32,000 nt of DNA from an uncultured Candidatus Saccharibacteria bacterium (lineage in GTDB: Bacteria > Patescibacteriota > Dojkabacteria > CAZCSM01): assembly GCA_964501355.1 (NCBI GenBank), contig CAZCSM010000011.1, positions 1 to 32,000 of the forward strand. The letters run 5' to 3'. Of the stretch, positions 2,721 through 26,705 are shown one piece after another (positions within the stretch are counted from its first letter, which is position 1; every line of letters begins with the position of its first letter). The notes under the pieces are model-generated. The model searched no databases, had not been told where the DNA came from, and saw only the letters and a list, made by a program, of their open reading frames with translations. Position numbers and translations under genes: made by a program.

Positions 2721-2854
2721 CACTTTATCTGTATGGGGTTGATTAATCTTTGGGGTCTGGGACAACCTGTTCCGGTAGTTATCTGTATTAGGTTGCTATT
2801 TCTCGGAATTAGGTTGTCCCGGAAATTTTGGTTACTTTTGTTTGCAAAAGTAAC
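2721..2854 (+). repeat. Structured intergenic repeat, copy A
   Basis: 5' box ATCTGTATGGGGTTG...GGGGTCTG. Helix P1 2756-2768/2811-2823 and hairpin P2 2831-2840/2845-2854. Near-identical to 20373-20509 and homologous to 13255-13391 and 12571-12713. Confidence 0.85.
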
Positions 2855-2990
2855 ATGATTCCATTTTTCACTTCTCTAACTTAACAACTACAACTTGCTA
2901 TCTTCTACAAAACATTAACCTGTTAAATCCAATACCTCAAACATACATGCCAAATATCACTAGTGGTTTATATGAATTAATTAATACTGA

Positions 2991-3328: not shown

Positions 3329-4642
3329 ATGAAAAAGTACATGAAAAAACTCTTATTGGCCGCAACGGTGATACTTCTCGCTATACCACTTGCCGGATGC
3401 AAGCTACCTTGGCAAAAGGATGAAACAGAGGATGATGCTCCTGTTTCTCTTGTATACTGGGGAATTTGGGAACCGGAATCGGTAATGCAGGACGTAATTG
3501 CAAAATACCAATCATTACACCCGAATGTAACGATTGAATATACAAGAAGACCATACTCAGACGGTCTTTATAAAGAGCAATTACTAGAAAGGCTTGCTGA
3601 TCCGGATCCGAACAAAGCTCCTCATATTATGAGAATTCATAACACATGGCTTCCTCAATTCAAGAGTGAGCTTGCTCCAATTCCAGCTGACATTATGACA
3701 GAAAGTGAATACTCACAGACTTTCTATAATACCGCATTGAGAGATTTCAAGGCAGATGGAAGCCTTTATGGAATACCTCTTGAAGTAGATACTCTTGGAC
3801 TTTTCTATAATAAAGATCTATTTGCCCAGGAAGGTTTCACTACTCCACCAACAGACTGGGATCGATTTATTGAATATGCACAAAAGTTAACCAAATATGA
3901 TCCGGAAAATGAAGATAGAATTCTGCAAGCAGGTGCAGCTATGGGCGCAAGTTCAAACGTACTGCATTCTGCAGAAATTCTTTCATTATTAATGTTACAA
4001 AGTGACATAGAGATGACTAACGACGAAAGAACCCAAGCAACATTTGACATCAGTAATAATGAACAGGGAGCAACAGTTGCTGAATATTACACAAATTTCA
4101 TTGAGAGATATCATGTTTGGGGAACGGAACTTCCGAATTCTCTCGACATGTTTATCCAAGGAAAACTCGCAATGATGATTGCTCCAAGCTGGAGGGTTTT
4201 TGATATCCTTGATGCGAAACCAAATTTCGAATTTGATACAGCACCTGTACCTCAAATCACACTTGGAACAGAAGTAAACTATGCAACATATTGGGGAGAA
4301 GTTGTTTCAAAGGATTCTCCAAACACGAAAGTTGCATGGGATTTTGTGAGATTCTTGGCAGAACAGGAACAACTTAGAACAATGTATGATGCAGAATCTG
4401 ATTTGCGACCATTCGGAGAACCCTACTCTCGAAAAGACATGAGAGATGAAATCAAGAATGCACCATATGTCGGACCATTTGTAAATATGGCGCAAACTGC
4501 AGGAAGCTGGTACATGGGAAATGACGATGTAGCAACAAAAGCGCTAGATGATATGATCACGAATATTCTTAACGGGAAAGCCGCAGATTCTCAAATTAAA
4601 ACAGCAGCAGAAACTGTTACATTGGAATTAGAAAAGTTGTAG
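3329..4642 (+). CDS. ABC-transporter-type extracellular solute-binding lipoprotein (family 1, sugar-type)
   Basis: Signal peptide with lipobox LAGC (LLAIPLAGC). Length and motifs (VYWGIWEPE, TPPTDWDRF, MIAPSW) fit family-1 SBPs. No permease or ATPase gene is adjacent. Confidence 0.75.
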   Translation: MKKYMKKLLLAATVILLAIPLAGCKLPWQKDETEDDAPVSLVYWGIWEPESVMQDVIAKYQSLHPNVTIEYTRRPYSDGLYKEQLLERLADPDPNKAPHIMRIHNTWLPQFKSELAPIPADIMTESEYSQTFYNTALRDFKADGSLYGIPLEVDTLGLFYNKDLFAQEGFTTPPTDWDRFIEYAQKLTKYDPENEDRILQAGAAMGASSNVLHSAEILSLLMLQSDIEMTNDERTQATFDISNNEQGATVAEYYTNFIERYHVWGTELPNSLDMFIQGKLAMMIAPSWRVFDILDAKPNFEFDTAPVPQITLGTEVNYATYWGEVVSKDSPNTKVAWDFVRFLAEQEQLRTMYDAESDLRPFGEPYSRKDMRDEIKNAPYVGPFVNMAQTAGSWYMGNDDVATKALDDMITNILNGKAADSQIKTAAETVTLELEKL

Positions 4643-4655
4643 TAATAAACAAAGA

Positions 4656-7600
4656 GTGAAGAACAAAGTCGACATTTTTACGGTAAACAGAAAAACGAAA
4701 GCACCCGAGAAGAGGGTCAACCATAATAAACAAATGTTTATGATGATTGGCTTATTGGGATTAGTGATTGCTATTCCTCTTCTCGTCTTTACACTTCTTC
4801 AACCGGAGGGTGCATTTGAAACTAGGAGAGAAGCTGCAGAAAGCACTCAATTCTATGGACTTCTCAAGCTAACTTCCGAAATACCGCTGCAAATGATCCC
4901 CGAAGGGTTCATCGGTGATGATTACTATTATTTTGCAAAAACAGATAAAAAGCCGGTAAACTTTGGCACCTCGGAACTTTCACCAAAATATTTAGTTGCA
5001 GCCAAAACAAACATCGATGACTTACTGCTAAATGCACACTACGATACATTATCCAGTTCGCAGACTTACTCTATCCAAAATGTAACGACAACCCCAATTA
5101 CGGGTTCTGCGACAACACAACTTATTGTAACCGATGAGGGTTCTCTAATTGAAGAAATCAGTAACCAAATTCCAGGCGTCTCCGCAGTAGGGACGTTGCC
5201 AACGGAAGTGAAAGCAGGACAACCATTCTCTCTCAATTATAGAATTGAAGATCAGAACTCAGCAAAAGGAGATCTTATTCAGAAGTATTCAGTCACTCGT
5301 GGGTATAAAGGAGGCGGTTTTGTCTCAGATGATAACTGGGACGTCACCACTACACCAAATTATCAAACGACGTTTAATGTGACATCCCCTCTTTCCGTGA
5401 CAATCGGAGGAACACCGCCGGAATCAGCTATCGGGAAAACATTGGAACTGGGGGTTGCAGGAGTAGAATTAATTGGGAGCTATGGTGAGAAAAAGATTGA
5501 AGTCGCGATTAAAGAGAATGCCGCACCGGAAATTCAGGATATTGTTTATTATGAAAATAATGGGATAAATCCAAACTCCGTAGAGCATGTTTATCGACTT
5601 ATTTATGGGACAAAGGATTCTGTTTCTGGAAAAGTTGAAGTCCTTGCGTCAGACTCGGACGATACAAATTTAACATATACATTTGGGACATTACCTACAA
5701 GATTTAAAAATGTAAGGACAGAAAATAACGCTATTCTCTTTGATATCAGTTGGGATAACTTTGATGGGACCGAAGTATTTGAGACGGAAGTAACAGTTAC
5801 AGATGGATACAAAAGCGTAAATAAGAAAATCCCAATTGCAGTAAGTAAAAAATATACTCTTCACGACCCTGCCCTTTGCCCACCGGTTCCAGGAGTAGTT
5901 TGTGAAGACTGGTCAGCAGATTTTAATTACACAGTAAAGACTAATTCATATCAAGTTACTTTTACACGACCTGATAATCTTATACCATCAAATAATAGCA
6001 TCGAAACATTCTGGTGGATATTTGATGACGGACTCGAAACATATGGGGACGAAACAGTAACACACACATATCCTCGCTCAGGTTCCTATGACGTAACATT
6101 AGTTATTATGGATTCTTCTGAGACAGGAGTATTCATGACAAAAAGCATTACAGTCAATCCAATTGGGAATTTAAAACCACCACAAGCATCCTTTATTGCA
6201 ATTCCGCAGGTTGGGAATGCACCACTTACAGTAAGAGTAAACCCGGAGGGTTCTTCAGATGCAGACGGAACAATTACAAAATACGAATGGAACTTTGGAG
6301 ATGGTCAGAGCCAGGAACATAATAGTGCGATAGCATTTGAACATACATTTAATACAGCAGGACTGTATACAATAACACTGACCGTTACTGATAACGATGG
6401 ACTAACAGCACAACAGACGTCGAAGATTACAGTTGGATCAAATACAGCACCCGTCGTATTCATCACGAAACCAAATCAGGGAACGTACGGAGGAACCGCA
6501 AGCAATCCTGGGAATAGGATAACGTGGTCGGTTGCTGATGCAGAAAATAACTCTCCCCTTCTCTATAATCTTTACTTGGTCAAATCACAAGCCGGAGGAA
6601 CATGTACTAGCGAAGCTACAAATACAGCACCAAACTATTTATTATCTTCAGGAAATATCAATTACTCCGCAGGACAATATCTTCCATCTGTATTTGAATG
6701 GGATACATCAACATCAAGATCCGGAAGCATTGTAGACGGGTATTATTGCGTAAAGATAAATGTAATTGATGACACATATGGTCAGCTTTCTGCTGATTAC
6801 TCTGACAACCCTATTGAAATAATCAATGCTCAACATACGCCATACGTTACAACAGAATATTTACCGGATGCGGTAAAAGATCAGTATTACTCCACGCAAG
6901 TTAACGCTTACGATGAAGACGGTGATTCCCTGACATTTGCACTTGGCAAAGGTCCGAACTGGGTTGAGGTTACAAATGCAGGAGAGATAAAAGGCACACC
7001 AAATGCAAGCGGACCTCAAACGATAATTATTACAGTTACAGATGGAAGAACTCGAACAATTAAAGTTTATACACTAAATGTGAAAGCTATCGAAGGACAG
7101 ATTCTACCAGCTGTAACGGTTGCGACAAATATTGAAGTATTCGTCGGAAGCACAGGAATAATCAACTGGACTATGGAAAATGGCGATGATGTATCAAGTC
7201 TGGACTTACAATATTCAACCGATGGAGAAAATTGGAACAACATAGCAAGCGGTTTATCGAAAGATATAAATGAATACAACTGGGATGTTTCAGAATTAGA
7301 GGCCGGAGTTTATCAAATACGAATCCTTTATTATGATTCAGAGGATAATACATTGGGTGCAAGCTCAGTCAAAGAGATCGAGATTGCACAACCTGAAGCA
7401 CAAAATGAAAGCGAGCCAATTGTATATGGGATGAAACCTACCGATGGAGAGAAAGTAACAGATAAGACACCAAAGATTTCTGCAAACTTTAAGGCAGGAT
7501 TTGGTAGTAAAGTTATGTTAGAAAGCGTAAGAGTTTACCTAGATAATAAACAAATTCAAAATAACGATGGATTTGAAGTATTTGATGGCGGATTCGCATA

Positions 7601-8199: not shown

Positions 8200-10416
8200 A
8201 TGAAAATCTACAATCTTAAAATTGCAAAGACTCGACGATTGTTCACGATCAGTATTGCAATATTATCCTGCATCTTTTTTTTCAGTAAAAATTTTCTTGA
8301 AAAGGCCTATGCACTAACAGAATCTTTTTCTCCCGCTGATTTAGTCATAGGTCAACCTGATATGATAAGTGGAACAGCGAATAATGGAGGAATCAGTGCT
8401 TCTAGTTTATCGTGGACCTACTCTGTTTTCAGTTATGGCGAAAATGTATATGTAGCAGATACAATGAACAGTAGAGTTTTAATATATAATGGAACACCAG
8501 GAGAAGATAATTGGGATAATGTAGCTGACTATGTGATAGGTCAACCTGATATGGTAAGTAATACTGGGAATAATGGAGGTGTAAGTGCTAGCAGTTTGTA
8601 TCAATCTTTTTCAGTTGCTACAGATGGAAGAAATGTTTATGTGGCGGACTTTATTAATAACAGAGTTTTAATTTATGATGGAATTCCAGGAGAAGAGGGC
8701 TGGGATAATGTCGCAGATTATGTTATTGGTCAACCTGATATGACCAGTGTTACTGCAAATAACGGGGGAAGAGGTGCTAGCAGTTTATATCGACCAACTT
8801 CGGTTGCCACAGACGGAGAGAGAGTCTATGTTGCAGATAACAATAACAATCGAGTATTGATTTATAATGGAATACCAGGAGAAGTAGGATGGGATAATGT
8901 AGCTGACTATGTGATAGGTCAACCTAATATGACCAGTGGTACTGGAAACAATGGAGGATTAAGTGCCAGTAGTTTATATCAACCAACTTCGGCAACCACA
9001 GATGGAGAGAGAGTTTATGTAGCAGATTATGTTAATAGTCGAGTGTTAATCTATGAGGGAATACCAGGAAAAGAGAGCTGGGATAATGTCGCAGACTATG
9101 TAATAGGTCAACCTGATATGACTAGTGGTACCTCTAATAACGGAGGGGTAAGTGCCAGTAGCTTGTTTTTCCCACGGTCAGTTAACACAGACAGAGAAAA
9201 AGTCTATGTGGTTGATAGCTATAACCATCGAATTTTGATCTACGAGGGGATACCAGGAGAGGTAGATTGGGATAACATCGCAGACTATGTAATAGGACAA
9301 TCTAATATGACAAGTAATACGAAAAACAATGGAGGTGTAAGTGCTAGTAGTTTATCTGAACCAACTTCGGTTACTACAGATGGAAGAAATATATATGTGG
9401 CAGAAAGGCTTAATTATCGTGTACTAATCTATTACATGGGTCCACAAAATATGAGTTTCACTTCAGTTTCTAGCTTAAGCAATAGCTTGACAGGAAACAC
9501 TTTTACTCTTGCAGGACGTGATGCAAAAGAGATGATGATATCTGAAGACAATGCTTTTGACGGAATCCCATGGGAAAGTTTTTCAACTTCAAAACTGTTT
9601 AGTCTTTCATCTGGAGATGGAATAAAGACTGTATATGCTAAGATGAGAGATTATGCTAATTATGAAGGAGAAGTACTATCAGCAACAATTACTGTAGATA
9701 CAACTAAACCAACAGGTACATTTTCAATCAATACAAATTCTACCTACACAAACACACCAGTTGTTACACTCACACTATCAGCAAGTGATAACCTCTCAGG
9801 AGTATCACAAATGATGATTTCAAACACTTCAGTTTTTACAGGAGCAAGTTGGGAAAACTATTCAGCAACTAAACAATGGACACTACCATCGGGAGATGGA
9901 GAGAAGAGCGTATATGTTAAGTTTAAAGATAACGCAGGAAATGAATCATTGGTTGTTAGCGATACTGTTATTCTAAAAACCGCTGCACTTCTAACACTAG
10001 ATCTGACTAATCTAAATTATCAACAAACACAGGAGAGATATACAAGAGCAGAAGGAGAACCGGTGATAGTAAGAGGAACAGCAGAACAGAGTACGGTGGT
10101 AACAATCACAGCATTAACGGAAGAAGGAGTAGTGGTTTACGAGACCCAATTAACAGTAGGAGAAGGTGGTAACTGGGAGATAGACTTAGGAGATGTTTTA
10201 GGAGTAGGAACATACCTAGTACAAATAACAACGACCGATCCGGCAGGGAACATAGCATCGAGTGAGTTTACTTTAGGTGTCGAAGCTGTTATAGAAGAAG
10301 TCGAAACTTTACCACAGACAGGAGAAGGAATTATAATTCCGTTTTTCCTAGGAATCTTCTTATTGTTGAAGCACTTTATGAAAAATAAAATGACTAAGCA
10401 ATATATTTTTCACTAG
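8200..10416 (+). CDS. Sortase-anchored six-bladed NHL-repeat beta-propeller surface protein
   Basis: N-terminal signal/TM. Six 63-aa repeats (ADYVIGQPDMTSGT.NNGG.SASSL..P.SV.TDG..VYVAD..N.RVLIY.GIPGE..WDN, including YNHRILIY). Two repeats of about 110 aa (SGDGxKxVYxK..D.AGNES type). C-terminal LPQTGE + hydrophobic segment + KHFMKNK tail. Confidence 0.85.
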   Translation: MKIYNLKIAKTRRLFTISIAILSCIFFFSKNFLEKAYALTESFSPADLVIGQPDMISGTANNGGISASSLSWTYSVFSYGENVYVADTMNSRVLIYNGTPGEDNWDNVADYVIGQPDMVSNTGNNGGVSASSLYQSFSVATDGRNVYVADFINNRVLIYDGIPGEEGWDNVADYVIGQPDMTSVTANNGGRGASSLYRPTSVATDGERVYVADNNNNRVLIYNGIPGEVGWDNVADYVIGQPNMTSGTGNNGGLSASSLYQPTSATTDGERVYVADYVNSRVLIYEGIPGKESWDNVADYVIGQPDMTSGTSNNGGVSASSLFFPRSVNTDREKVYVVDSYNHRILIYEGIPGEVDWDNIADYVIGQSNMTSNTKNNGGVSASSLSEPTSVTTDGRNIYVAERLNYRVLIYYMGPQNMSFTSVSSLSNSLTGNTFTLAGRDAKEMMISEDNAFDGIPWESFSTSKLFSLSSGDGIKTVYAKMRDYANYEGEVLSATITVDTTKPTGTFSINTNSTYTNTPVVTLTLSASDNLSGVSQMMISNTSVFTGASWENYSATKQWTLPSGDGEKSVYVKFKDNAGNESLVVSDTVILKTAALLTLDLTNLNYQQTQERYTRAEGEPVIVRGTAEQSTVVTITALTEEGVVVYETQLTVGEGGNWEIDLGDVLGVGTYLVQITTTDPAGNIASSEFTLGVEAVIEEVETLPQTGEGIIIPFFLGIFLLLKHFMKNKMTKQYIFH
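8335..9468 (+). repeat. Six tandem 189-bp coding repeats (NHL blades)
   Basis: The unit start GC(T/A)GA(C/T)T(A/T)(T/A)GT(G/A/C/T)ATAGGTCAACCTGATATG recurs at 8335, 8524, 8713, 8902, 9091 and 9280, an exact 189-nt period. Confidence 0.9.
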
Positions 10417-12570: not shown

Positions 12571-12713
12571 TCTTTCTGTTCTAGGCATTTGGTCGTTGGG
12601 GTCTGGGGGGATGTGTGTTTGCACGGGTAAGGATGATTTGTCTTTATCTATCTGCCAACGGAAAACGCCACATCCCCCCAGCGCTTTTGATTCCTTTTGG
12701 CGTCAAAAGGAAT
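12571..12713 (+). repeat. Structured intergenic repeat, diverged copy D
   Basis: Keeps the 5' box GGTCGTTGGGGTCTG and the CTTTTG linker. P1 is CTGGGGGGATGTG (12603-12615)/CACATCCCCCCAG (12669-12681). P2 is ATTCCTTTT (12690-12698)/AAAAGGAAT (12705-12713). Confidence 0.75.
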
Positions 12714-12825
12714 AGAGAAATTTTGTTTGTATTCTATGCATAAACAATTCTCAATATATAGATCCATTCAAAAATAAAGTAATCTCTGTTACAATATCAA
12801 AGACTAAAATAAACCAAACCGCCCA

Positions 12826-13245: not shown

Positions 13246-13254
13246 ATTACTGAC

Positions 13255-13391
13255 CCCTTATTATCTGTATTGGGTTGTTGAATCGTCGAAGTCTGAAACA
13301 AGTGATTCCGGTTGCTATTTGCTTTAAGGTCGTGCTTGGAGGGAGTTCACTTGTTTCAGAAATTTTGGTTACTTTTGTTTGCAAAAGTAAC
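13255..13391 (+). repeat. Structured intergenic repeat, copy B
   Basis: 5' box ATCTGTATTGGGTTGTTGAATCGTCGAAGTCTG. P1 is TCTGAAACAAGTGA (13292-13305)/TCACTTGTTTCAGA (13347-13360). P2 is 13368-13377/13382-13391, identical to copy A. Confidence 0.85.
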
Positions 13392-14621: not shown

Positions 14622-14649
14622 TTTTGTCGTTTGACATTTGTCATTTGTC
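14622..14649 (+). repeat. Four tandem heptads (TTTGTC/TTTGAC core)
   Basis: TTTTGTC GTTTGAC ATTTGTC ATTTGTC, then CC. Same motif family as 240-260. Confidence 0.7.
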
Positions 14650-14673
14650 CCTCCGTTTGCTATTCTATATAAA
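14645..14673 (+). promoter_or_regulatory. Candidate promoter of the 14697-15407 gene pair
   Basis: -35 TTGTCC (14645-14650), 17-nt spacer, -10 TATAAA (14668-14673), 24 nt before the ATG. Confidence 0.3.
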
Positions 14674-15407: not shown

Positions 15408-15509
15408 AATTTCTAATTACTCTAATTGACCTAATTTCTAAATAATAAGCGGTATTTCACAATGCTCTGGTGCTATTAATTCACCCACTTTCTATTTTCA
15501 TTTTTCGCC

Positions 15510-15694: not shown

Positions 15695-18600
15695 ATGAAA
15701 CCAAATCGCAAAAGAATCGTCACCGCAGTAGTATTCGCAGTAACGCTAGTACTAGGAGCAAGCGCACTTGCACTTGCATGGAGACTGCAACAGGAAAAAG
15801 CAACCTATGAGGAAGCAGAAGCAGGAAGTTGCGGAGATAATGCATCTTGTCCAGCTGACTACCCAATATCGGCAGAAACAACAAGCTGCTCATGCCATGG
15901 AGATTGCGTTAAATGTGCCAGGGTGTGTTGTAAAGATAATGGTAGTGGAGGATGTGATAGATCACAAACAACAACAGTCTGGCCTGCTGGAATCCAGGAT
16001 TGTCAGGCCGATGGAAAATACTGCGAAGGCGGAAGTTGCAAGACTCATGATCAAGGATGTACCTGGCCAAACGATTGTGAAACCGTAAGTTCAGGCTCGA
16101 CAACAAGTCATTGGATTAAATGGTATTGTTTTGGATGGACTTGTAGTACAGAAGATTGCTATAACCGATGTCAATTAGGTTCGAATCTTCAAGCAACTCA
16201 AACAAATATGGCAAATGCCGGAGTAGGCAATGACACCTTAGAATACCCCGAAGTGTGTTATGATAGACAAGTTGATTATTATAACAATGATGCACCTCCT
16301 GCAAATCCAGGAAATTTTGCAGGAGCAAGATTATATTCAGCTGAATATGCAATTGGACAAGGACCCTGTACAAATGTCGTTACCCGAACACTTTCTGGTG
16401 AAGTCTATTGTCAAGACGTTGGTGGAACGAAAATGCCAATTGCAAGTGCAAACATGACTATTATAAGAAACACACTTGGAAATACAACTACGACAACAAG
16501 TGCTACGGGTGCATATAGTTCAGACCTAACAGGAGAAACAGGATTTGCTTCAAGATTAACATCACTTCCAACGGGAAATCTGCCAAACGGACAACCATAT
16601 GCATCAATGGTCGGACCAACCCTTGTCCCGAAGAGCTATTGCACCGTTAACACATCCTATGAGATGTGTAGCGCGACTGCTGCAACAAATCATACTGGAT
16701 TTGACTTCGCTTATACAAATTGTACACCAACCCCAAATCCAACAATAACTTGTACAAGTAAAAGTTCAGACAGAGACTCAAGCGGAATAAGTATTGGACA
16801 GTCCATAACGTACACCGTTAGCTATACAATAACCGAACAAAATCTTAAAACTCTGCAATTTACTGATAACCACTCTCCGGCAGGAATACTTTCTGCAACA
16901 GTTGCAGAGATTACTCCTGGCCTGGTTTGCGAAGATGTCGTAGCAGGACAGTTTAGCTGCACAATGAACGGTACAGATGCTGCCGCACAGGCCCTCAGAT
17001 CAGTCGGATCACATCAAGTGGCGTTTGTTGTTAACGTGAATCAAGCAAGAGTAATGGAGGTTGATCAGATTACAAATAACATTTATGAATTCAACGGTAC
17101 ATGGGGAGACAATAATACTGCAGTAACTGGAAACACGACTGCTTGTACAGATACCGTGAATGTAGAGATTAATCCTGAAGCCGTTTGTACAGGCAAGAGC
17201 ATAACTCCGACAGGATTGATTGACCCAGGACAAAATGTAACATTTACGATCAATTATTCAAACTCTGGAGATGTTGATGGAAACATCTTGATTACGGATG
17301 TGGTACCAAATGGTTTTGAGAACGTTGCAACCACGACATCAGGATGCACAGCATCTGGAAATACCGTGAATTGCGTCATTGGAACAATATCACAATCTTC
17401 CGGAACCGTGACAATAACAGCAAAGGCGAAGAGTAATGTCAGAGATCTTGAAACAAACAATACAGCAACGGTGAGAATAGATATCAACGGAGATGGTACA
17501 CCTGACGATACAGCACCAAATGCTACAGAAATAGCGACATGTTCTACAGAACCGACGCCATCAGTGGCAGGAGTTATGTGTGTTAGCAAAGATGCTTCTG
17601 CAGGATACGAAGAATCAGAACCGATTCAACCAGGAGACACCCTTACCTACACGGTTAACTACACTGTCGAAAGAGGACCCGCAACTGTAATTATTACAGA
17701 AGATATTCCTGAACACTTGGAAGTAATAGAAGCAACACTACCAACAGGATGTGAATTAAGAGAAACTGATACGGTACTATATTGTGAAATCGTAGAGACA
17801 GATGTTGGTGATTACACGAATTCAATCAGTTTTGATGCTACGGTAAAAACAGACATCGGAATTGATGGTGCAACAATTACAAATGAAATATTTGTATATG
17901 AAAGAGGAGAAGAGAAGCCATCAACGAATCCTGACGATTGTGATGAAACAATTTATGTAGAGCACGAAGCTCCTGCCTGTGTACTTACAACTCCAAGTGT
18001 AATGACTATCAGAGTTGCAGATCTTGCAGGTACAAGCATCAGCTTAACTACAACAGGTGACATTGGTACACATTCTGACCTCGACTTCTTATGGACAGCA
18101 ACCGGAGGAACATTATCAAGCACAACATGGCATGCATCTTCCGGAACACCAGCAAATGGACAAGTCGCGGATGTTGTAACTTGGGCACCTCCTACAGATG
18201 CAGAAGATACAGATACTTTTGATATTAAAGTATATGTCAGACCGGCAGGTAGCACAGATGAGACAGGTGTAAGCGATGATGCTTGCGAATCAACAGCCAC
18301 AATTACCGCTCTCGACCTAATCTGTAACTGGTTGGTTCCAAATGATGAATATGAATTCTTCCCATTTGACATGACATTCGCAGCTGATATCGGTGGAGAT
18401 CAAGGGGCAGCATTCACATACGATCTTAACTATGGTGATGGATCAACCCACTACACCGGAAGTGGAACAGTAGCTGCAGGAACAACAGTTGAACTACCAT
18501 ATGTTCCTCCACAAGACGAACCACATACATACGACAGCGATACACCAGTTGATTACGCTCCAGTACTTACTGTAACGAATACAGAAACAGGAGAGACAAG

Positions 18601-19261
18601 CGTATGTCCTACAGTTCTTGGTGGTCGCACACAATCTGAGTGGACAATCGTTAAAGACTCTGATGTCGATACTTGTGTTGCGGTTAACACAACAGCTACC
18701 TACTCTATCGTTGTAACAAACACAGGTGACTATACAGCAGACCTTGCACAAGTTAGAGATACAATTGATTCAAAGATTGATACTACAACTATTGCAAATA
18801 TTAGAGAGTGTGATTCAAATGGTTTGAACTGCACAACTTACAACAGAACAGATGTAGTAAGCGGCAGAACAATCACATGGCCAGGTAGAACATATACTGC
18901 AGGAGAATCTAGAAAGTATATGTACACCGTAACTGTAAATACTGCTGGTGATTATTATAATGTAGCTGAAGCAATCCCAGAAACAGGAGCAACAGTTAGA
19001 GATGACGAAGTATTCCCAACGTGTGCTGGCAAGACACCAGTAGCACCTGAGACAGGAGCACTATCAACAACAGCATACATCGCAATACTTGGAATGCTGA
19101 TTGTCGCAGGAAGTTACTATGCTTACAATACCAAAGCAGGAGCACAGATTGTTGCAAATGTTATGGGAAAGACTGGTAGATCTGTTCGAAGAAGTCTTAA
19201 TCGTAAGGAGACATTCGAAAGAGATGCTATTAGATCTGAGAAGGATAAGTTAAGAGGATAA
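15695..19261 (+). CDS. Large surface protein: Cys-rich N-terminal module, DUF11-type repeats, C-terminal APETG sorting-like signal
   Basis: Signal/TM (VTAVVFAVTLVLGASALALA). Dense cysteines over roughly aa 40-230. DUF11-like repeats (GQSITYTVSYT, GQNVTFTINYSNSGDVDGNILITDVVP, GDTLTYTVNYTVERG, TATYSIVVTNTGDY). APETG + TM (ALSTTAYIAILGMLIVAGSYYAY) + basic tail of about 44 aa. Confidence 0.85.
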   Translation: MKPNRKRIVTAVVFAVTLVLGASALALAWRLQQEKATYEEAEAGSCGDNASCPADYPISAETTSCSCHGDCVKCARVCCKDNGSGGCDRSQTTTVWPAGIQDCQADGKYCEGGSCKTHDQGCTWPNDCETVSSGSTTSHWIKWYCFGWTCSTEDCYNRCQLGSNLQATQTNMANAGVGNDTLEYPEVCYDRQVDYYNNDAPPANPGNFAGARLYSAEYAIGQGPCTNVVTRTLSGEVYCQDVGGTKMPIASANMTIIRNTLGNTTTTTSATGAYSSDLTGETGFASRLTSLPTGNLPNGQPYASMVGPTLVPKSYCTVNTSYEMCSATAATNHTGFDFAYTNCTPTPNPTITCTSKSSDRDSSGISIGQSITYTVSYTITEQNLKTLQFTDNHSPAGILSATVAEITPGLVCEDVVAGQFSCTMNGTDAAAQALRSVGSHQVAFVVNVNQARVMEVDQITNNIYEFNGTWGDNNTAVTGNTTACTDTVNVEINPEAVCTGKSITPTGLIDPGQNVTFTINYSNSGDVDGNILITDVVPNGFENVATTTSGCTASGNTVNCVIGTISQSSGTVTITAKAKSNVRDLETNNTATVRIDINGDGTPDDTAPNATEIATCSTEPTPSVAGVMCVSKDASAGYEESEPIQPGDTLTYTVNYTVERGPATVIITEDIPEHLEVIEATLPTGCELRETDTVLYCEIVETDVGDYTNSISFDATVKTDIGIDGATITNEIFVYERGEEKPSTNPDDCDETIYVEHEAPACVLTTPSVMTIRVADLAGTSISLTTTGDIGTHSDLDFLWTATGGTLSSTTWHASSGTPANGQVADVVTWAPPTDAEDTDTFDIKVYVRPAGSTDETGVSDDACESTATITALDLICNWLVPNDEYEFFPFDMTFAADIGGDQGAAFTYDLNYGDGSTHYTGSGTVAAGTTVELPYVPPQDEPHTYDSDTPVDYAPVLTVTNTETGETSVCPTVLGGRTQSEWTIVKDSDVDTCVAVNTTATYSIVVTNTGDYTADLAQVRDTIDSKIDTTTIANIRECDSNGLNCTTYNRTDVVSGRTITWPGRTYTAGESRKYMYTVTVNTAGDYYNVAEAIPETGATVRDDEVFPTCAGKTPVAPETGALSTTAYIAILGMLIVAGSYYAYNTKAGAQIVANVMGKTGRSVRRSLNRKETFERDAIRSEKDKLRG

Positions 19262-19276
19262 TAAATCCTTTAATTC

Positions 19277-19307
19277 AAAAGACCCGCCAATGGCGGGTCT
19301 TTTGTTT
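19277..19307. terminator. Bidirectional rho-independent terminator between convergent genes
   Basis: AAAAGACCCGCC-AAT-GGCGGGTCTTTT with A and T runs on both sides, then GTTT. Confidence 0.85.
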
Positions 19308-19316
19308 CTTCTCCTC

Positions 19317-19347
19317 GTGTCATCGCGGACTCCGTTCCGCGATCCCC
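19317..19347 (+). repeat. GC-rich palindromic element (GTCAT-hairpin-ATC family)
   Basis: GTGTCATCGCGGA-CTCCGT-TCCGCGATCCCC. 8-bp stem at 19322-19329/19336-19343. Confidence 0.7.
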
Positions 19348-19396: not shown

Positions 19397-20338
19397 CTAA
19401 ATCACACTCAACAAAAGCGTAATCGCAAAGAGCGGATCAGTAACGCTAGTTTTAATTTGGAAATCAATTTCCACAAGTTTATCGTAAAGTACCTTGAGTT
19501 TTTCAAAGCTAATCGATTGGCGACTGTTTACGATCTTGCTCACAACAAAAGGGCTGAACTTTAACTTGGATGCAATTGAAGAAGGACTTGTTCCCCTGCT
19601 CTGTTCATATTTAATTAAAATTAGCTGACGAAACTGCCAAACAATTAACCCCCAAATCTGATGAATATCATTCCCCTGACGAATTAATTTTTCTAAATTT
19701 GATATGGCTACATTTTTATTTGCCGTAGCGATAGAGTTTGTTAGTCCCCAGACTTCAACGGCAGCACTTGCCGGAACCGCATCCTCAACATCCTTTACCG
19801 TAATTTTCCAACCTTTTTTATAAAGGCTAAGTTTCTCTATCTCACTACTAATCCTCCACATTTCTTCCCCTACTCTTTCTGCAATCTTTTGAGCAACTGT
19901 AGGAGAAACTTTTTGACCAAGAGATTCAAATTCTTCAATAATCCAATTCTCCAGAGATTTACCTTTTAACTCTGCAAACTCTTCTACCTCAAATTCTTTT
20001 TTAAAAAATTTGTAGAACACAGATCTCTTATCCGCAGCCTTATTTTCCCAGAAGATGAAATCTACCTCTTTTATTCCTGTTAATTTTGAATCCTGAAAAA
20101 ATTCAACAAACCTTTTACTTTCGGAGGTTTCGGAGAAATACTTCACAACAACAAGTTTCTGAGGATTAAACATAGATATTGAATCAATCTCAGATAGCAC
20201 CCTTTCAGCAAGAGCAGAACTTCCGTCTAAATATGTAACAGACGATTCTCCGTGATCTCTCTCAAAAGCAGAAGTAATCTCAGAAAGCCGCTTTCTAGAC
20301 AAATACGCATTAGGACCGTGGATTAAAAGAAGATTCAC
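19397..20338 (-). CDS. holA: DNA polymerase III subunit delta
   Basis: 313 aa with the typical delta layout (LIHGPN..., SMFNPQKLVVV, EIEKLSLY...ITVKDVEDAV, C-terminal helical domain LVEIDFQIKT). GTG start. Confidence 0.75.
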   Translation of the reverse strand: MNLLLIHGPNAYLSRKRLSEITSAFERDHGESSVTYLDGSSALAERVLSEIDSISMFNPQKLVVVKYFSETSESKRFVEFFQDSKLTGIKEVDFIFWENKAADKRSVFYKFFKKEFEVEEFAELKGKSLENWIIEEFESLGQKVSPTVAQKIAERVGEEMWRISSEIEKLSLYKKGWKITVKDVEDAVPASAAVEVWGLTNSIATANKNVAISNLEKLIRQGNDIHQIWGLIVWQFRQLILIKYEQSRGTSPSSIASKLKFSPFVVSKIVNSRQSISFEKLKVLYDKLVEIDFQIKTSVTDPLFAITLLLSVI

Positions 20339-20372
20339 TTTCTAAAACTAATAAATATTAATCAAAAACATT

Positions 20373-20509
20373 CCCCTTTATTATCTATATTTGGTTGTTA
20401 GTCGTTGAGGTCTGGAACAACCTGTTCCGGTAGTTATTTGTATTAGGTTGCTATCTGCTGGAATTAGGTTGTTCCAGAAATTTTGGTTACTTTTGTTTCC
20501 AAAAGTAAC
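20373..20509 (+). repeat. Structured intergenic repeat, copy C
   Basis: P1 is TCTGGAACAACCT (20411-20423)/AGGTTGTTCCAGA (20466-20478). P2 is 20486-20495/20500-20509. It is in + orientation although both flanking genes are on the minus strand. Confidence 0.85.
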
Positions 20510-20526
20510 AGAGATGAATATTTCCA

Positions 20527-21129
20527 TTATACCTTCTCAAATTCCACCACAACCTTATCCTGCATAAAACGAAGCTTAGTCAACTTTCTACTCCCGAAAT
20601 TCTGGGTCTTCATTTGCTCAATCGCTTGGTAAACAGCCTGATCTAATTTATCCGAGATAAAATCTGGAAGTTTAATTGGTCCGACAGAAAGCTTCTCCGG
20701 TTTTGGATAATAAGTTCCCGCTTCAGTTTCTTCCGAAACAAACTGCGAAGAAATATCCAAACCGAAAGGTCCTGCGGAATGGAAATATCCGGTATTGAGA
20801 GCAAAATCTAAATAGAACTCATCTGCTTTAACAGGAAGCCATTTAATATTGGAATTTGTAATAAAGGAAGTTATAAACTCCTCTGCCTCAAATTCAGTAA
20901 GAATCAAGGTTGCAGTGCCGGACTCGTCTAAATTCTTCTCCAGAGTATCAATGCGTTCTTCTAAATCAATCGTAGCCTCCCCAAGCACCTGAGAGTCCGC
21001 TTCTATCTGCGGGCCCTTATACATGAAGTTATCTTTCTGACTATAAATGAAAAGCCCAATTCCTCCGATAAACAAACTTAGGATTAATAATGCTCCACCA
21101 GTTATTAACAAAAAGAATTTTCTGATCAT
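20527..21129 (-). CDS. Membrane-anchored hypothetical protein, translationally coupled to murJ
   Basis: N-terminal TM (FFLLITGGALLILSLFIGGIGLFIY). Its ATG overlaps the murJ TGA (ATGA). Confidence 0.65.
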   Translation of the reverse strand: MIRKFFLLITGGALLILSLFIGGIGLFIYSQKDNFMYKGPQIEADSQVLGEATIDLEERIDTLEKNLDESGTATLILTEFEAEEFITSFITNSNIKWLPVKADEFYLDFALNTGYFHSAGPFGLDISSQFVSEETEAGTYYPKPEKLSVGPIKLPDFISDKLDQAVYQAIEQMKTQNFGSRKLTKLRFMQDKVVVEFEKV

Positions 21130-24334: not shown

Positions 24335-26659
24335 ATGGACGAACAAAAAACACACATCGGTGACAGGATACCAAAAGGATATAATCCTACGGAAGTAGAG
24401 GAAAAGATTTATAAAATGTGGGATGAATCCGGATATTTCAACCCGGATAAAATGATTGCAGAGTATGCGGAAAAGGGAATTGACTGTCCAAAACCGTTTG
24501 TTATTCCACTTCCTCCACCAAATGCAAATGACAACCTTCATCTTGGACATGTATCCGGATACACCTATCAGGATTTGATGGGAAGATACAATCGAATGAA
24601 AGGTCGTCCTACCCTACTTTTACCGGGAAAGGATCATGCAGGAATTCAAACAGAAGTTGTTTTTGAAAAATATTTAGAGAAGAAAGAAAGTATTCGAAAA
24701 AGAGACTTGGGACGTGAGGAATTCTATAAAAGATGTTTCGACTTCTGCATGATGAATGCGGAAAATGCGAGAAAACAGGAGAAAGCAATCGGACTTTCTG
24801 CCGATTATACCAGAGAGAAATTCACACTTGATGAAGATCTGACGAAAACCGTTATGGAGACATTTGAGAAAATGTTTAATGAAGGACTGGTTTACAGAGG
24901 CTCAAGAATTATTAACTGGTGTACAAGATGTCAGACGGCTCTTGCTGACATTGATACAGAGCATGAAGATAAAGAAGGTATCTTCGCCTACATTAAATAC
25001 CCGATTAAAAATTCTGATAAATTTATTGAGGTTGCAACGACACGTCCTGAAACAATGCTTGGAGATACAGCCGTCGCCGTTGATCCGAAAGATGAAAGAT
25101 ACAAAGATCTTGTCGGGAAGATGTGTATTGTTCCATTTGCTAATCGAGAAATTCCAATTATTGCAGATTATCGAGTTGATATGGAGTTTGGAACTGGTGC
25201 GGTAAAAGTTACGCCTGCACACTCTCCGGTTGATTATCAAATTGGAAAAGATCACGGCTTGGAAGAAATATCTGTTATCGACAGATACGGCAGAATGACT
25301 GAAGAAGCCGGTGCTCCATACACAGGAATGAAGATTAAAGAATGTAGAGAACAACTTCTAATCGACCTTGAAAAAGAAGGTCTGTTAATCAAAGTCGAGC
25401 CATTCATGCATGCGGTTACCATTTGTGAACGATGCAAAAAAGATATTGAACCACTTATTCAAAATCAATGGTTCGTAGATGTTCAGAAAATTAAACAACC
25501 TGCAATTGATGCGGTAAAGAATGGAGAAACAAAAATCTATCCAGAAAGTAAAGAGAAGGTTTACATGAACTGGATGGAGAATCTACAAGATTGGTGTATC
25601 TCGAGACAATTGTGGTGGGGACATAGAATTCCTGTTTGGTATTGTGGTGGAAGAGATATGTATGATACAAAACTAGAAAATGCAGAGGCAACAGGAGACG
25701 GTTGTGGCCATGCTTTTGTTCAATACGAAGGAACACCTACAGAATGTCCAGAATGCAAAGGAAAGAATATAGAACAAGATCCGGACGTTTTCGATACATG
25801 GTTCTCATCGGGACAATGGCCGTTCTCAACACTTGGCGGTCTTGAAGGAGAAGATTTTGCTAAGTTCTATCCCGGGGATGTTTTAGAAACAGGTGGAGAT
25901 ATTCTAACATTCTGGGTTGCTCGAATGATGCTCATGGGAACATATCGAACCGGCAAAGCTCCTTTTCATTCGGTTTATCTGCATGGGTTAGTTACGGATA
26001 AAAATGGACAGAAGATGAGCAAGTCAAAAGGAAATGGTATTGATCCGACAGAAATGAGAGAAAAATACGGAACAGATGCACTTCGATTCTCATTTGTTTT
26101 CGGTAATGCGCCAGGACAGAACTACAGATTGTATGAGGAAAAGATAAAAAGCTTCCGAAACTTCATCAACAAGATCTGGAATGGATCAAGATTCGCAATG
26201 ATGCAATTCGGTTTGTTGTCTGAAGAAGAAATTAAAGAGATTGTATCGCTATCAGAGACTATCTCAGATACAGACAGATTGAAAGCTCTAAACAGCCACA
26301 TTTCTGAAACATCAAGACTAATTGATGAATACCGTTTTGGAATTGCTGCAGAAACCCTTTATGACTTCTGGTGGCACACATTCTGTGATCAGTACATTGA
26401 AGAGATTAAAACAGAAATCAATACTTTAAGCGAAGGAAATGGCGACAGTGTCATCCCGGACTCCGATCCGGGATCCCGTAATCAAAAGCAACTCACTTTG
26501 CTCGCAGAACTATTGAAGCTGCTTACAACACAATTGAAGCTACTCCACCCATTCACCCCATTTGTTACCGAAGAGATCTGGCAGGTACTAAAGGGAATGG
26601 AACTACTTGATGACAAGGCGGATATGCTGATGATGAGTAAGTGGCCAAAGGTAATCTAA
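24335..26659 (+). CDS. valS: Valine--tRNA ligase, short form
   Basis: PPPNANDNLHLGH (HIGH region), PGKDHAGIQTE, TTRPETMLGDTAVAVDPKDERY and KMSKSKGN. 774 aa with no long C-terminal coiled coil. Confidence 0.92.
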   Translation: MDEQKTHIGDRIPKGYNPTEVEEKIYKMWDESGYFNPDKMIAEYAEKGIDCPKPFVIPLPPPNANDNLHLGHVSGYTYQDLMGRYNRMKGRPTLLLPGKDHAGIQTEVVFEKYLEKKESIRKRDLGREEFYKRCFDFCMMNAENARKQEKAIGLSADYTREKFTLDEDLTKTVMETFEKMFNEGLVYRGSRIINWCTRCQTALADIDTEHEDKEGIFAYIKYPIKNSDKFIEVATTRPETMLGDTAVAVDPKDERYKDLVGKMCIVPFANREIPIIADYRVDMEFGTGAVKVTPAHSPVDYQIGKDHGLEEISVIDRYGRMTEEAGAPYTGMKIKECREQLLIDLEKEGLLIKVEPFMHAVTICERCKKDIEPLIQNQWFVDVQKIKQPAIDAVKNGETKIYPESKEKVYMNWMENLQDWCISRQLWWGHRIPVWYCGGRDMYDTKLENAEATGDGCGHAFVQYEGTPTECPECKGKNIEQDPDVFDTWFSSGQWPFSTLGGLEGEDFAKFYPGDVLETGGDILTFWVARMMLMGTYRTGKAPFHSVYLHGLVTDKNGQKMSKSKGNGIDPTEMREKYGTDALRFSFVFGNAPGQNYRLYEEKIKSFRNFINKIWNGSRFAMMQFGLLSEEEIKEIVSLSETISDTDRLKALNSHISETSRLIDEYRFGIAAETLYDFWWHTFCDQYIEEIKTEINTLSEGNGDSVIPDSDPGSRNQKQLTLLAELLKLLTTQLKLLHPFTPFVTEEIWQVLKGMELLDDKADMLMMSKWPKVI
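26448..26477 (+). repeat. GC-rich palindromic element inserted in frame within valS
   Basis: GTGTCATCCCGGA-CTCCGA-TCCGGGATCCC. 8-bp stem at 26453-26460/26467-26474. It encodes SVIPDSDPGS and has the same GTCAT...ATC flanks and ACTCCG loop as 19317-19347. Confidence 0.75.
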
Positions 26660-26674
26660 GATTACTATTAATTT

Positions 26675-26705
26675 AAGAGAACCTCTTACAAGAGGTTCTC
26701 TTTTG
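26675..26705. terminator. Terminator hairpin between convergent valS and the minus-strand operon
   Basis: 12-bp stem AAGAGAACCTCT/AGAGGTTCTCTT with loop TACA. There is a T run on the + side; the minus-direction tail is weaker. Confidence 0.75.

Follow-up and report, generated by a model that had tools for sequence, protein, structure and literature searches.

The DNA analysed here, called the window below, is a stretch of 32,000 nucleotides (nt) from an uncultured Candidatus Saccharibacteria bacterium (contig CAZCSM010000011.1, positions 1-32,000), and all coordinates refer to it. The window encodes housekeeping genes, and its alanyl-tRNA synthetase (AlaRS) shares about 58% identity with proteins assigned by name to Candidatus Dojkabacteria, which places the organism in Patescibacteria. 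Beside alaS, ruvX, yceG, holA and an M48 peptidase gene lie four copies, A to D, of a structured repeat element; a covariance model built from 23 Patescibacteria-type copies gives exactly these four matches in the window, with scores of 77-82 bits. Copy D occupies positions 12571-12713 of the plus strand, between the stop codon of alaS (12559) and the start codon of ruvX (12826), and the model matches it at 12589-12713 with 81.7 bits. Its G-rich 5' box, GGTCGTTGGGGTCTG (12591-12605; family consensus GGGGTYYGGGG), overlaps the start of the 13-bp helix P1, which is formed by CTGGGGGGATGTG (12603-12615) and CACATCCCCCCAG (12669-12681) and whose basal pairs covary in alignments A4 and A5. P1 is followed by the trinucleotide CGC (12682-12684), the U-rich linker L1, TTTTG (12685-12689), and the 10-bp helix P2, made of ATTCCTTTTG (12690-12699) and CAAAAGGAAT (12704-12713), with the loop GCGT (12700-12703) between its strands. 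All these parts are read on the plus strand, and the sequences that an initial annotation of this DNA had quoted for copy D are all present where it placed them.

That annotation described P1 and P2 and missed a further pairing: the first bases of the P2 loop find their complement in the three to four nucleotides directly before TTTTG. In copy D the first three loop bases, GCG, face CGC at 12682-12684, and in copies A to C the corresponding pairing is AAA/TTT. Among 76 distinct combinations from many genomes, the first three positions are paired with frequencies of 0.67, 0.88 and 0.75, versus 0.42, 0.60 and 0.37 in shuffles. An alignment of 110 sequences, made with a model that had no knowledge of this helix, gives the same picture: 72.8% of its cells are paired versus 47.2% in shuffles, and the covariation score is 0.56 versus 0.19, a value reached by none of 500 shuffles, with slid controls at 0.01-0.24. 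The pair types are varied (at one pair, for instance, 49 AU, 44 GC and 4 CG). As to P1, its eight basal pairs are paired in 91.7% of cells versus 64.4% in shuffles, in an alignment of 110 distinct sequences that was itself fitted to P1; in the same P1-fitted alignment all eight pairs show double changes, and no shuffle out of 500 reached the covariation score.

P2 behaves differently in its two halves. At the positions left free in our scans, pair 1 is a standard pair in 133 of 133 cases (four G-U pairs included) and pair 4 in 131 of 133. Copies without the exact module carry other distal P2 sequences, such as GCCAC/GTGGC or, in a relative of the window genome, CCCA/TGGG; further variants have GTAC/GTAC with one base lost on each strand, TTTTA/TAAAA, or a longer loop. 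The proximal CUUUUG/CAAAAG and the four U's of the linker persist even in these variant modules, and it is the distal half of P2 that covaries. The module can be written as xyz-UUUUG-GUUACUUUUG-z'y'x'N-CAAAAGUAAC. Since the loop of one helix pairs outside that helix and both helices covary, the 3' module is well supported, as a structure predicted from aligned copies, as an H-type pseudoknot (S1 being the pseudoknot helix and S2 being P2), in which the P2 loop pairs back to the three bases before the U-rich linker. In such a fold the U's of the linker would lie alongside the A4 strand of P2 in parallel orientation, and both U4 and the A4:U4 pairs are kept in all variants seen. We therefore suppose that the linker may form major-groove U.A-U triples with CUUUUG/CAAAAG, which would explain why this part of P2 hardly ever changes while the rest of the helix covaries; a linker of 5 nt over a 10-bp stem makes a plausible geometry for such a triple helix.

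In the light of these data the initial annotation, which had argued that the two helices of copy D were rebuilt from unrelated sequence while the fold was kept, appears real in part. Copy D does retain the 5' box; of the proposed CTTTTG linker only TTTTG is common to the copies. The box and the linker are not all that is retained, since P2 and the base of P1 are kept as well. P2 of copy D, far from being unrelated to that of the other copies, shares eight of ten pairs with it, and the two that differ (G-C to A-U and A-U to C-G) are both double changes. The P1 stem does differ in sequence, while its base, (T)CTG...CAG(A), is common to all four copies, and the three P1 sequences that had been counted as unrelated are not three independent examples, because copies A and C are 89% identical. 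The interpretation drawn from these helices, that the fold is under selection, is nevertheless supported, now by compensating changes in P1, in the distal half of P2 and in the pseudoknot helix across genomes. The annotation was also right in denying that copy D is a decaying duplicate. Copy D is 50-55% identical to copies from Falkowbacteria and Komeilibacteria and 39-47% identical to A-C, and by this measure it is best described as a separate family lineage that lies nearer the general consensus, not as an A-type copy in decay.

The wider sample, which the initial annotation had named as a possible refutation, speaks for its interpretation instead. In other genomes, sequences resembling D have in common the GGGGTYYGGGG 5' box, a P1 whose closing sequence is CTGGGG/CCCCAG, the linker TTTTG and P2; within the window the 5' box is matched three times at up to three mismatches, versus 0.33 matches expected. 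The structure-based alignment of copies revealed the covariation of P1 (110 sequences) and of the pseudoknot helix described above. Folding showed that all four window copies form P1 and P2, and that each of them is more stable than its shuffles: on the plus strand z ranges from -4.3 to -7.2, and none of 200 dinucleotide shuffles was as stable as the respective copy. The reverse strands of A-D also beat their shuffles, yet they are weaker by 13-17 kcal/mol in absolute energy.

Stability favours the plus strand in 101 of the 122 unique copies. In many lineages P2 is followed by a small hairpin with a purine-rich loop, such as GGA, GAGA or GGCGA, and the tetraloops of this hairpin are of the GNRA type in 7 of 10 cases and the reverse complement of GNRA in none. 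The strand bias in stability together with these GNRA-type loops provides grounds to suppose that the folded molecule is an RNA read from the plus strand. A coding function was considered and rejected, be it a small protein or a type I toxin, as no reading frame is kept across variants: copy A contains an open reading frame (ORF) of 41 codons, copy B lacks a start codon and has another frame, and the module variants shift or break the frame. Read in one frame, the module gives F-W-L-L-L-x-x-K-V-T and seeds spurious ORFs that cluster together (in many loci, for example L021, L048, L064 and L074, and in window 2735-2860).

Known RNA families gave no match. At the gathering threshold, Rfam 15 yielded nothing in the window or in elements from 10 loci of other phyla, relaxed thresholds applied to the window and to loci from other phyla gave chance-level matches only, and a scan for tRNA and tmRNA found no match. 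Full-text searches of the literature with the module sequence and descriptive terms returned no description of the element and only unrelated primers; an IS1111 probe containing CAAAAGTAAC was judged coincidental. Possible resemblances to the 3' region of 16S rRNA (the 1492R site), the Cas9 repeat:anti-repeat bulge, the Box C/D k-turn and the ERIC consensus were considered as well. Promoter and terminator scans of the window copies did not rise above shuffles: no promoter-like site was found in A or C, and no canonical intrinsic terminator in A, B or D, copy C having only internal sub-hairpins. An intrinsic terminator was rejected as an identity of the element, for the U-run precedes P2 instead of following it.

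The element was found in bacteria of at least eight phyla. A scan of a one-genome-per-species collection for the exact linker and P2 module, with four two-fold positions left free, detected it in at least 105 genome stretches from a wide range of phyla, with a single genome often carrying it on several contigs, and the covariance model matches nearly every locus scanned. According to the record titles, the carriers include Saccharimonadia, Falkowbacteria, Komeilibacteria, Oscillospiraceae, Faecalibacterium, Sphingobacterium, Mucilaginibacter, metagenome-assembled genomes (MAGs) of Bacteroidales, Gastranaerophilales/Melainabacteria, bins of Gemmatimonadales and Glassbacteria, Pseudoxanthomonas, and alpha- and gammaproteobacterial MAGs. 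A stricter pattern retrieved 20 metagenome stretches, many of them D-like with GGGGTCTGGGG...CCCCAG-xyz-TTTTGG. Acinetobacter baumannii chromosomes, misfiled in a plasmid collection, match a variant element in 4-6 places each, and the sequenced copy has the linker UUUUUG, the loop AUCCUU and GGA/UCC pairing. The exact module is missing from viral contigs, where a relaxed pattern gave chance matches and one true copy, and a search of E. coli with the module found nothing. A phage or plasmid origin was rejected, as plasmid and phage BLAST searches returned only the Acinetobacter chromosomes and a chance match in Listeria. This patchy, cross-phylum distribution points to probable horizontal spread among phyla. 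Members of the family measure about 140 nt; in other lineages the repeated unit reaches 230-400 nt and conserved sequence runs 16-50 nt past P2, the overall range of unit size being 70-400 nt. The Faecalibacterium copy (L006, on the locus minus strand at 3830-3935) is closed as a whole by one long-range helix between GCGGGGT at its 5' end and ACCCCGC immediately beyond P2; TTTT follows this helix, and three tandem 22-nt repeats (…CCATACAATCTACCCGTAAGCC…) stand in front of it. Sphingobacterium suaedae carries the 3' end of a group II intron (L023 5932-6006, minus strand; RF00029, 55.5 bits) about 430 nt from one of its three element copies, in a gene-poor stretch.

Comparison with relatives suggests how the copies came to their places. 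In the window the alaS-ruvX gap is 266 nt and contains copy D, and the ruvX-yceG gap is 196 nt and contains copy B; in relatives alaS, ruvX and yceG abut or overlap. One relative (L128; RuvX 62% and AlaRS 75% identical to those of the window) has an alaS-ruvX gap of 6 nt and another (L199; AlaRS 69%) a gap of 9 nt, ruvX and yceG overlapping in both; in a third (L127; RuvX 74%) the alaS-ruvX gap is 104 nt without an element and ruvX and yceG again overlap; in a fourth (L198; AlaRS 79%) the gap is 84 nt without an element and the contig ends within ruvX. With relatives of 62-79% identity in RuvX or AlaRS lacking copies at both sites, the alaS-ruvX and ruvX-yceG copies look like lineage-specific insertions. 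The C-terminus of RuvX and the N-terminus of YceG are unchanged in the window beside them. Conversely, L199 has one copy after yceG, where the covariance model finds none in the window. A promoter-like sequence, TTCAAA-17-(TG)TACAAT, lies upstream of ruvX (12767-12795), and the segment TACAAT...AAACCGCCC-ATG is kept in L198 (approximately 1945-1985), which is without copy D; it is thus ancestral and outside the insertion.

Similar differences are seen elsewhere. Faecalibacterium has one copy in sense orientation between pyrC and pyrF, and its relatives with PyrF 84-92% identical have pyrC-pyrF gaps of 57-142 nt and no copy; filled and empty sites are too diverged to align, so that the boundaries are not fixed. 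Similarity between the copies of one genome reaches 89-97%, and their flanks are unrelated. In A. baumannii the intergenic region on the yeaC side has the element in opposite orientations in different strains (L132 1420-1570 and L197 2501-2652), with 88% identity of the element, 99.6% identity of yeaC and a different gene on the other side. The latter led us to reject this locus as a clean insertion pair, and it may be a recombination boundary rather than the result of two insertions.

No protein family is shared by the neighbourhoods of the copies: clustering of the ORFs within 3 kb of about 105 listed genome loci, at two stringencies, yielded chance families only, for example ABC ATPases. 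Orientation relative to neighbours, classified at 47 sites with crude gene calls, is (+,+) in 19, (-,-) in 15, convergent in 11 and divergent in 2. The window's GC skew tracks the orientation of the genes and gives no information on replication-strand bias.

Taken together, the compensated fold, the multiplication within genomes, the presence/absence differences, the lack of a linked gene and the patchy cross-phylum range lead us to favour, with modest confidence, the view that A-D belong to a family of non-coding, strand-specific and gene-less interspersed elements that have spread horizontally as non-autonomous mobile elements and whose plus-strand transcript folds into P1 and an H-type pseudoknot. 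The unit consists of a G-rich 5' box, a long irregular P1 that is free to change its sequence, and, as its 3' part, a module that hardly varies. What the data show is the fold with its strand, the differences in presence between related genomes and the lack of a linked gene near the copies; as to function and movement, we infer the following scheme. The element would insert into intergenic DNA, compact operons included, and would be transcribed together with or into the neighbouring genes. Its fold would mainly serve the element itself, either as a compact RNA handle by which a trans-acting enzyme, itself encoded at another place, recognises it, or by protecting the transcript, and the stable structures at gene ends would then be a by-product. 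We advance only tentatively the stronger proposal that the family represents an unrecognised class of bacterial mobile elements, gene-less, cross-phylum and defined by RNA, in which the triple-helix pseudoknot at the 3' end is the handle for a trans-acting propagating enzyme; candidates for such an enzyme would be a reverse transcriptase, a recombinase or a guide-RNA nuclease encoded elsewhere.

Several points weigh against this interpretation. The P1 counts lean toward P1, the alignment having been fitted to it, and the invariance of P2 is partly built in, as the collection scans demanded the exact module. The pseudoknot may be sterically strained, with a lone unpaired loop base crossing a 3-bp stem. 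The preference for RNA over single-stranded DNA follows from indirect signs. Neither a target-site duplication nor a terminal inverted repeat nor an exact insertion boundary was found (beside A-D no target-site duplication was seen by eye), loss in relatives is a less probable alternative to insertion, and no partner enzyme was found. Finally, a gene of the same strand ends shortly upstream of three of the four window copies, which fits a function at the 3' ends of host genes as well.

Such a function is the first alternative to be considered: a REP-like module at gene ends that stalls 3'-to-5' exonucleases, or terminates transcription by means of P1 and the U-rich stretch, would stabilise or insulate the upstream message and be useful to the host rather than selfish. 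It agrees with the positions of A, D and B, which begin 5-12 nt after the stop codons of the M48 gene, alaS and ruvX on the same strand, with the scarcity of copies between divergent genes (2 of the 47 classified sites), with the U-rich stretch coming after P1, and with the promoter-like TACAAT before ruvX, present also in a relative, owing to which ruvX may have a promoter of its own. Against it, the orientation is near balance (19 versus 15), copy C is antisense to both its neighbours, and copies occur within the pyr operon and the alaS-ruvX-yceG cluster. P2 and the pseudoknot, located 3' of the U-rich stretch, still covary, which means that transcripts must read through it, and there is no canonical terminator in A, B or D. 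Besides, an identical module in eight phyla is not needed for a passive roadblock. Other genes of this genome are served by ordinary terminators: one at 19283-19306 (GACCCGCC-AAT-GGCGGGTC followed by TTTTGTTT) stands after the ORF 15695-19261, and another at 26677-26705 (GAGAACCTCTT-ACA-AGAGGTTCTC followed by TTTTGTT) after the ORF 24335-26659, so that termination in this genome can do without the repeat element. On balance we regard a host-serving gene-end module as rather unlikely, and the role in 3' processing, stability or termination that the initial annotation had suggested is not established, given the mixed orientation to neighbouring genes and the ordinary intrinsic terminators after other genes.

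The second alternative is an IS200/IS605-type element of the palindrome-associated class (palindrome-associated transposable element, PATE) with an omega RNA scaffold, which a Y1 transposase acting on single-stranded DNA would move; a TnpB-like nuclease encoded elsewhere would use its transcript, and the flank after P2 would be the guide. PATEs encoding omega RNAs used in trans have been described (Meers et al., 2023; PMC10055086), and they are the nearest concept in print. Both are gene-less and of similar size (the unit sizes of 140-260 nt fit), have an RNA scaffold usable in trans, lack inverted terminal repeats and are strand-specific, all four window copies being on one strand; moreover, copies A-D have no common sequence directly 3' of P2. 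The arrangement of a U-run beside a hairpin that pairs through its loop with the 5' flank may be likened to the guide handles of the Cas12 type. However, no neighbour gene is shared within 3 kb of the listed genome loci, neither tnpA nor tnpB was found there, and most IS605-type units carry tnpB. No second P2-like hairpin was seen at the 5' end to make a matching pair of end hairpins, and no conserved flank motif (transposon-adjacent motif, TAM) is evident in A-D; this comparison of left-flank motifs and 5' hairpins covers four copies with an uncertain 5' boundary. The conserved sequence extends past P2 in other lineages, and the element is virtually absent from viral contigs. There was no Rfam match either, with the limit that the Rfam content for such guide RNAs was not checked. 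A PATE origin is therefore improbable in our judgement.

Slightly less probable still, we think, are independently transcribed small RNA genes, that is, trans-acting regulators or components of ribonucleoproteins with promoters of their own that were duplicated within genomes. As judged by eye, several Patescibacteria copies have an AT-rich stretch that looks like a -10 box at a distance of 8-30 nt before their GGGG box, and B and C are preceded by TATTAT; furthermore, functional RNAs typically show a conserved architecture of this kind, GNRA-type loops included. On the other hand, the promoter scan did not exceed shuffles and left A and C without a promoter-like site, no terminator follows P2, and the patchy, high-copy, cross-phylum range with absence in close relatives is unlike known regulatory small RNAs. 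As for the possibility that two generic hairpins are alike by chance, or that D is simply a duplicate in decay, to which the identity of D to A-C of just 39-47% might point, it is refuted and has a practically negligible probability, because the model scores D (E about 1e-20) similarly to A-C, the 5' box, P1 base, linker, P2 and pseudoknot of D are common to copies from other phyla, and P1 and the pseudoknot covary.

Structured interspersed repeats are a known kind of element, and the preferred reading, a gene-less mobile family, should be set against the described ones. REP/BIME, ERIC, BOX, Correia and bcr1-type repeats are likewise short, non-coding, multicopy and intergenic, lie mainly at gene ends, can fold as RNA and are co-transcribed with genes. 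To our knowledge, none of these families extends beyond a species or genus or has a cross-phylum module, and we know of none that is defined by a covarying pseudoknot. REPs are palindromes of 20-40 nt tied to a RAYT gene; REP/REPIN with RAYT (GTAG head, inverted pairs, species-specific) was rejected, as the units here are 70-400 nt long, have the same orientation in all four window copies and share a module across phyla. A miniature inverted-repeat transposable element was rejected because the ends (5' TTATCTGTAT..., 3' ...CAAAAGTAAC) are not inverted repeats of each other. Nor did we retain an integron attC site (the flanking genes are alaS, ruvX, yceG, holA and that of the M48 peptidase, and P2 does not fit the GTTRRRY core box), a CRISPR array or tandem repeat (the copies are 0.7-10 kb apart, with genes between), or a riboswitch or other cis-regulatory leader (neighbours are unrelated across loci, and copies are absent at the same sites in relatives). 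Intrinsic terminators are alike in that P1 is a G+C-rich stem with a U-rich stretch within 3 nt; they differ in that here the P1 loop measures 40-60 nt, covarying structure continues beyond the U-rich stretch and no U-run follows P2.

As to the predicted 3' structure, the SAM-II and preQ1-II riboswitches and telomerase RNA form H-type pseudoknots with a major-groove U.A-U triple helix (PMC13541005). They likewise have two stems sharing a loop and a U-run linker parallel to the A-run strand of the second stem; in contrast, they are single-copy RNAs in defined gene contexts, and here the module ends a dispersed repeat and the triple helix is a prediction. Transposon RNAs of plants and fungi contain triple-helix elements like the element for nuclear expression (ENE) (Tycowski et al., 2016, as related in PMC13541005). 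As far as that account goes, the likeness lies in a transposable-element transcript with a U-rich triple-helix structure that would protect it, and the difference in that the ENE clamps a poly(A) tail in eukaryotes, whereas the present element has an internal A-run and a bacterial host, and its protection is hypothetical. That review, published in 2026 and devoted to RNA triple helices, names no example from a bacterial transposon. A cross-phylum module with a covarying pseudoknot is something that we could not find described in the literature.

If the favoured interpretation is true, a compact pseudoknotted RNA module that is uncatalogued in Rfam has entered, and multiplied in, genomes of Patescibacteria, Firmicutes, Bacteroidota, Proteobacteria, Melainabacteria and Gemmatimonadota type, possibly with a new partner enzyme or mobility mechanism. 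The culturable carriers A. baumannii, Sphingobacterium and Mucilaginibacter make the motif testable. An RNA-defined mobile class, if real, would be a bacterial counterpart of the sharing of 3' tails between short and long interspersed nuclear elements (SINEs and LINEs) or of orphan guide RNAs. For the evolution of operons it would mean that insertions can split compact operons in reduced genomes. There are also practical consequences: the FWLLL..KVT ORFs that the module yields are a likely source of false 'hypothetical proteins', and the repeat breaks short-read assemblies. For example, Logan contig L126 (2867 nt), which carries the identical ruvX, stops within copy B, some 67 nt past the gene, and this is consistent with such breakage.

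The other three window copies, likewise on the plus strand, share the layout of D. Copy A (2716-2854) begins 5 nt past the stop codon of the M48 peptidase ORF; its P1 pairs 2756-2768 with 2811-2823, the pseudoknot AAA 2823-2825 with TTT 2841-2843, L1 lies at 2826-2830 and P2 pairs 2831-2840 with 2845-2854. Copy B (13252-13391) is placed between ruvX (stop 13245) and yceG/mltG (start 13442), with P1 at 13292-13305 and 13347-13360, L1 at 13363-13367 and P2 at 13368-13377 and 13382-13391. Copy C (20371-20509) is flanked on both sides by minus-strand genes, holA (19397-20338) and the ORF 20527-21129; its P1 is at 20411-20423 and 20466-20478, L1 at 20481-20485 and P2 at 20486-20495 and 20500-20509. 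In copy A the 5' tail TTATCTGTATgGGGTTG (2725-2741) is directly repeated in the apical loop of P1 as TTATCTGTATtAGGTTG (2783-2799), and the same holds for B and C; AGGTTG occurs a third time in the 3' strand of P1, so that CAACCT could pair with any of the three. Falkowbacteria copies show a similar repeat between upstream and interior sequence, ATAGAACA.

The window contains further repeats. A second family is a palindrome of about 30 nt, GTGTCATC(C/G)CGGACTCCG(A/T)TCCG(C/G)GATCCC, with copies at 19317-19346, 26448-26477 and 1899-1924 and, in the relative L199, in reverse orientation at approximately 7033-7062. The copy at 26448 is in frame within the tRNA-synthetase ORF 24335-26659, taken for leuS, where it reads SVIPDSDPGSR, and may be likened to the in-frame palindromic insertions of Rickettsia. 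The ORF 8200-10416, coding for a surface protein with NHL repeats, contains five to six tandem repeats of 189 nt (63 codons) at 8335-9477. Finally, a T-rich 29-mer, TTTGTCGTTTGACATTTGTCATTTGTCCC, has three intergenic occurrences, at 234-262, 14623-14651 and 15480-15508.

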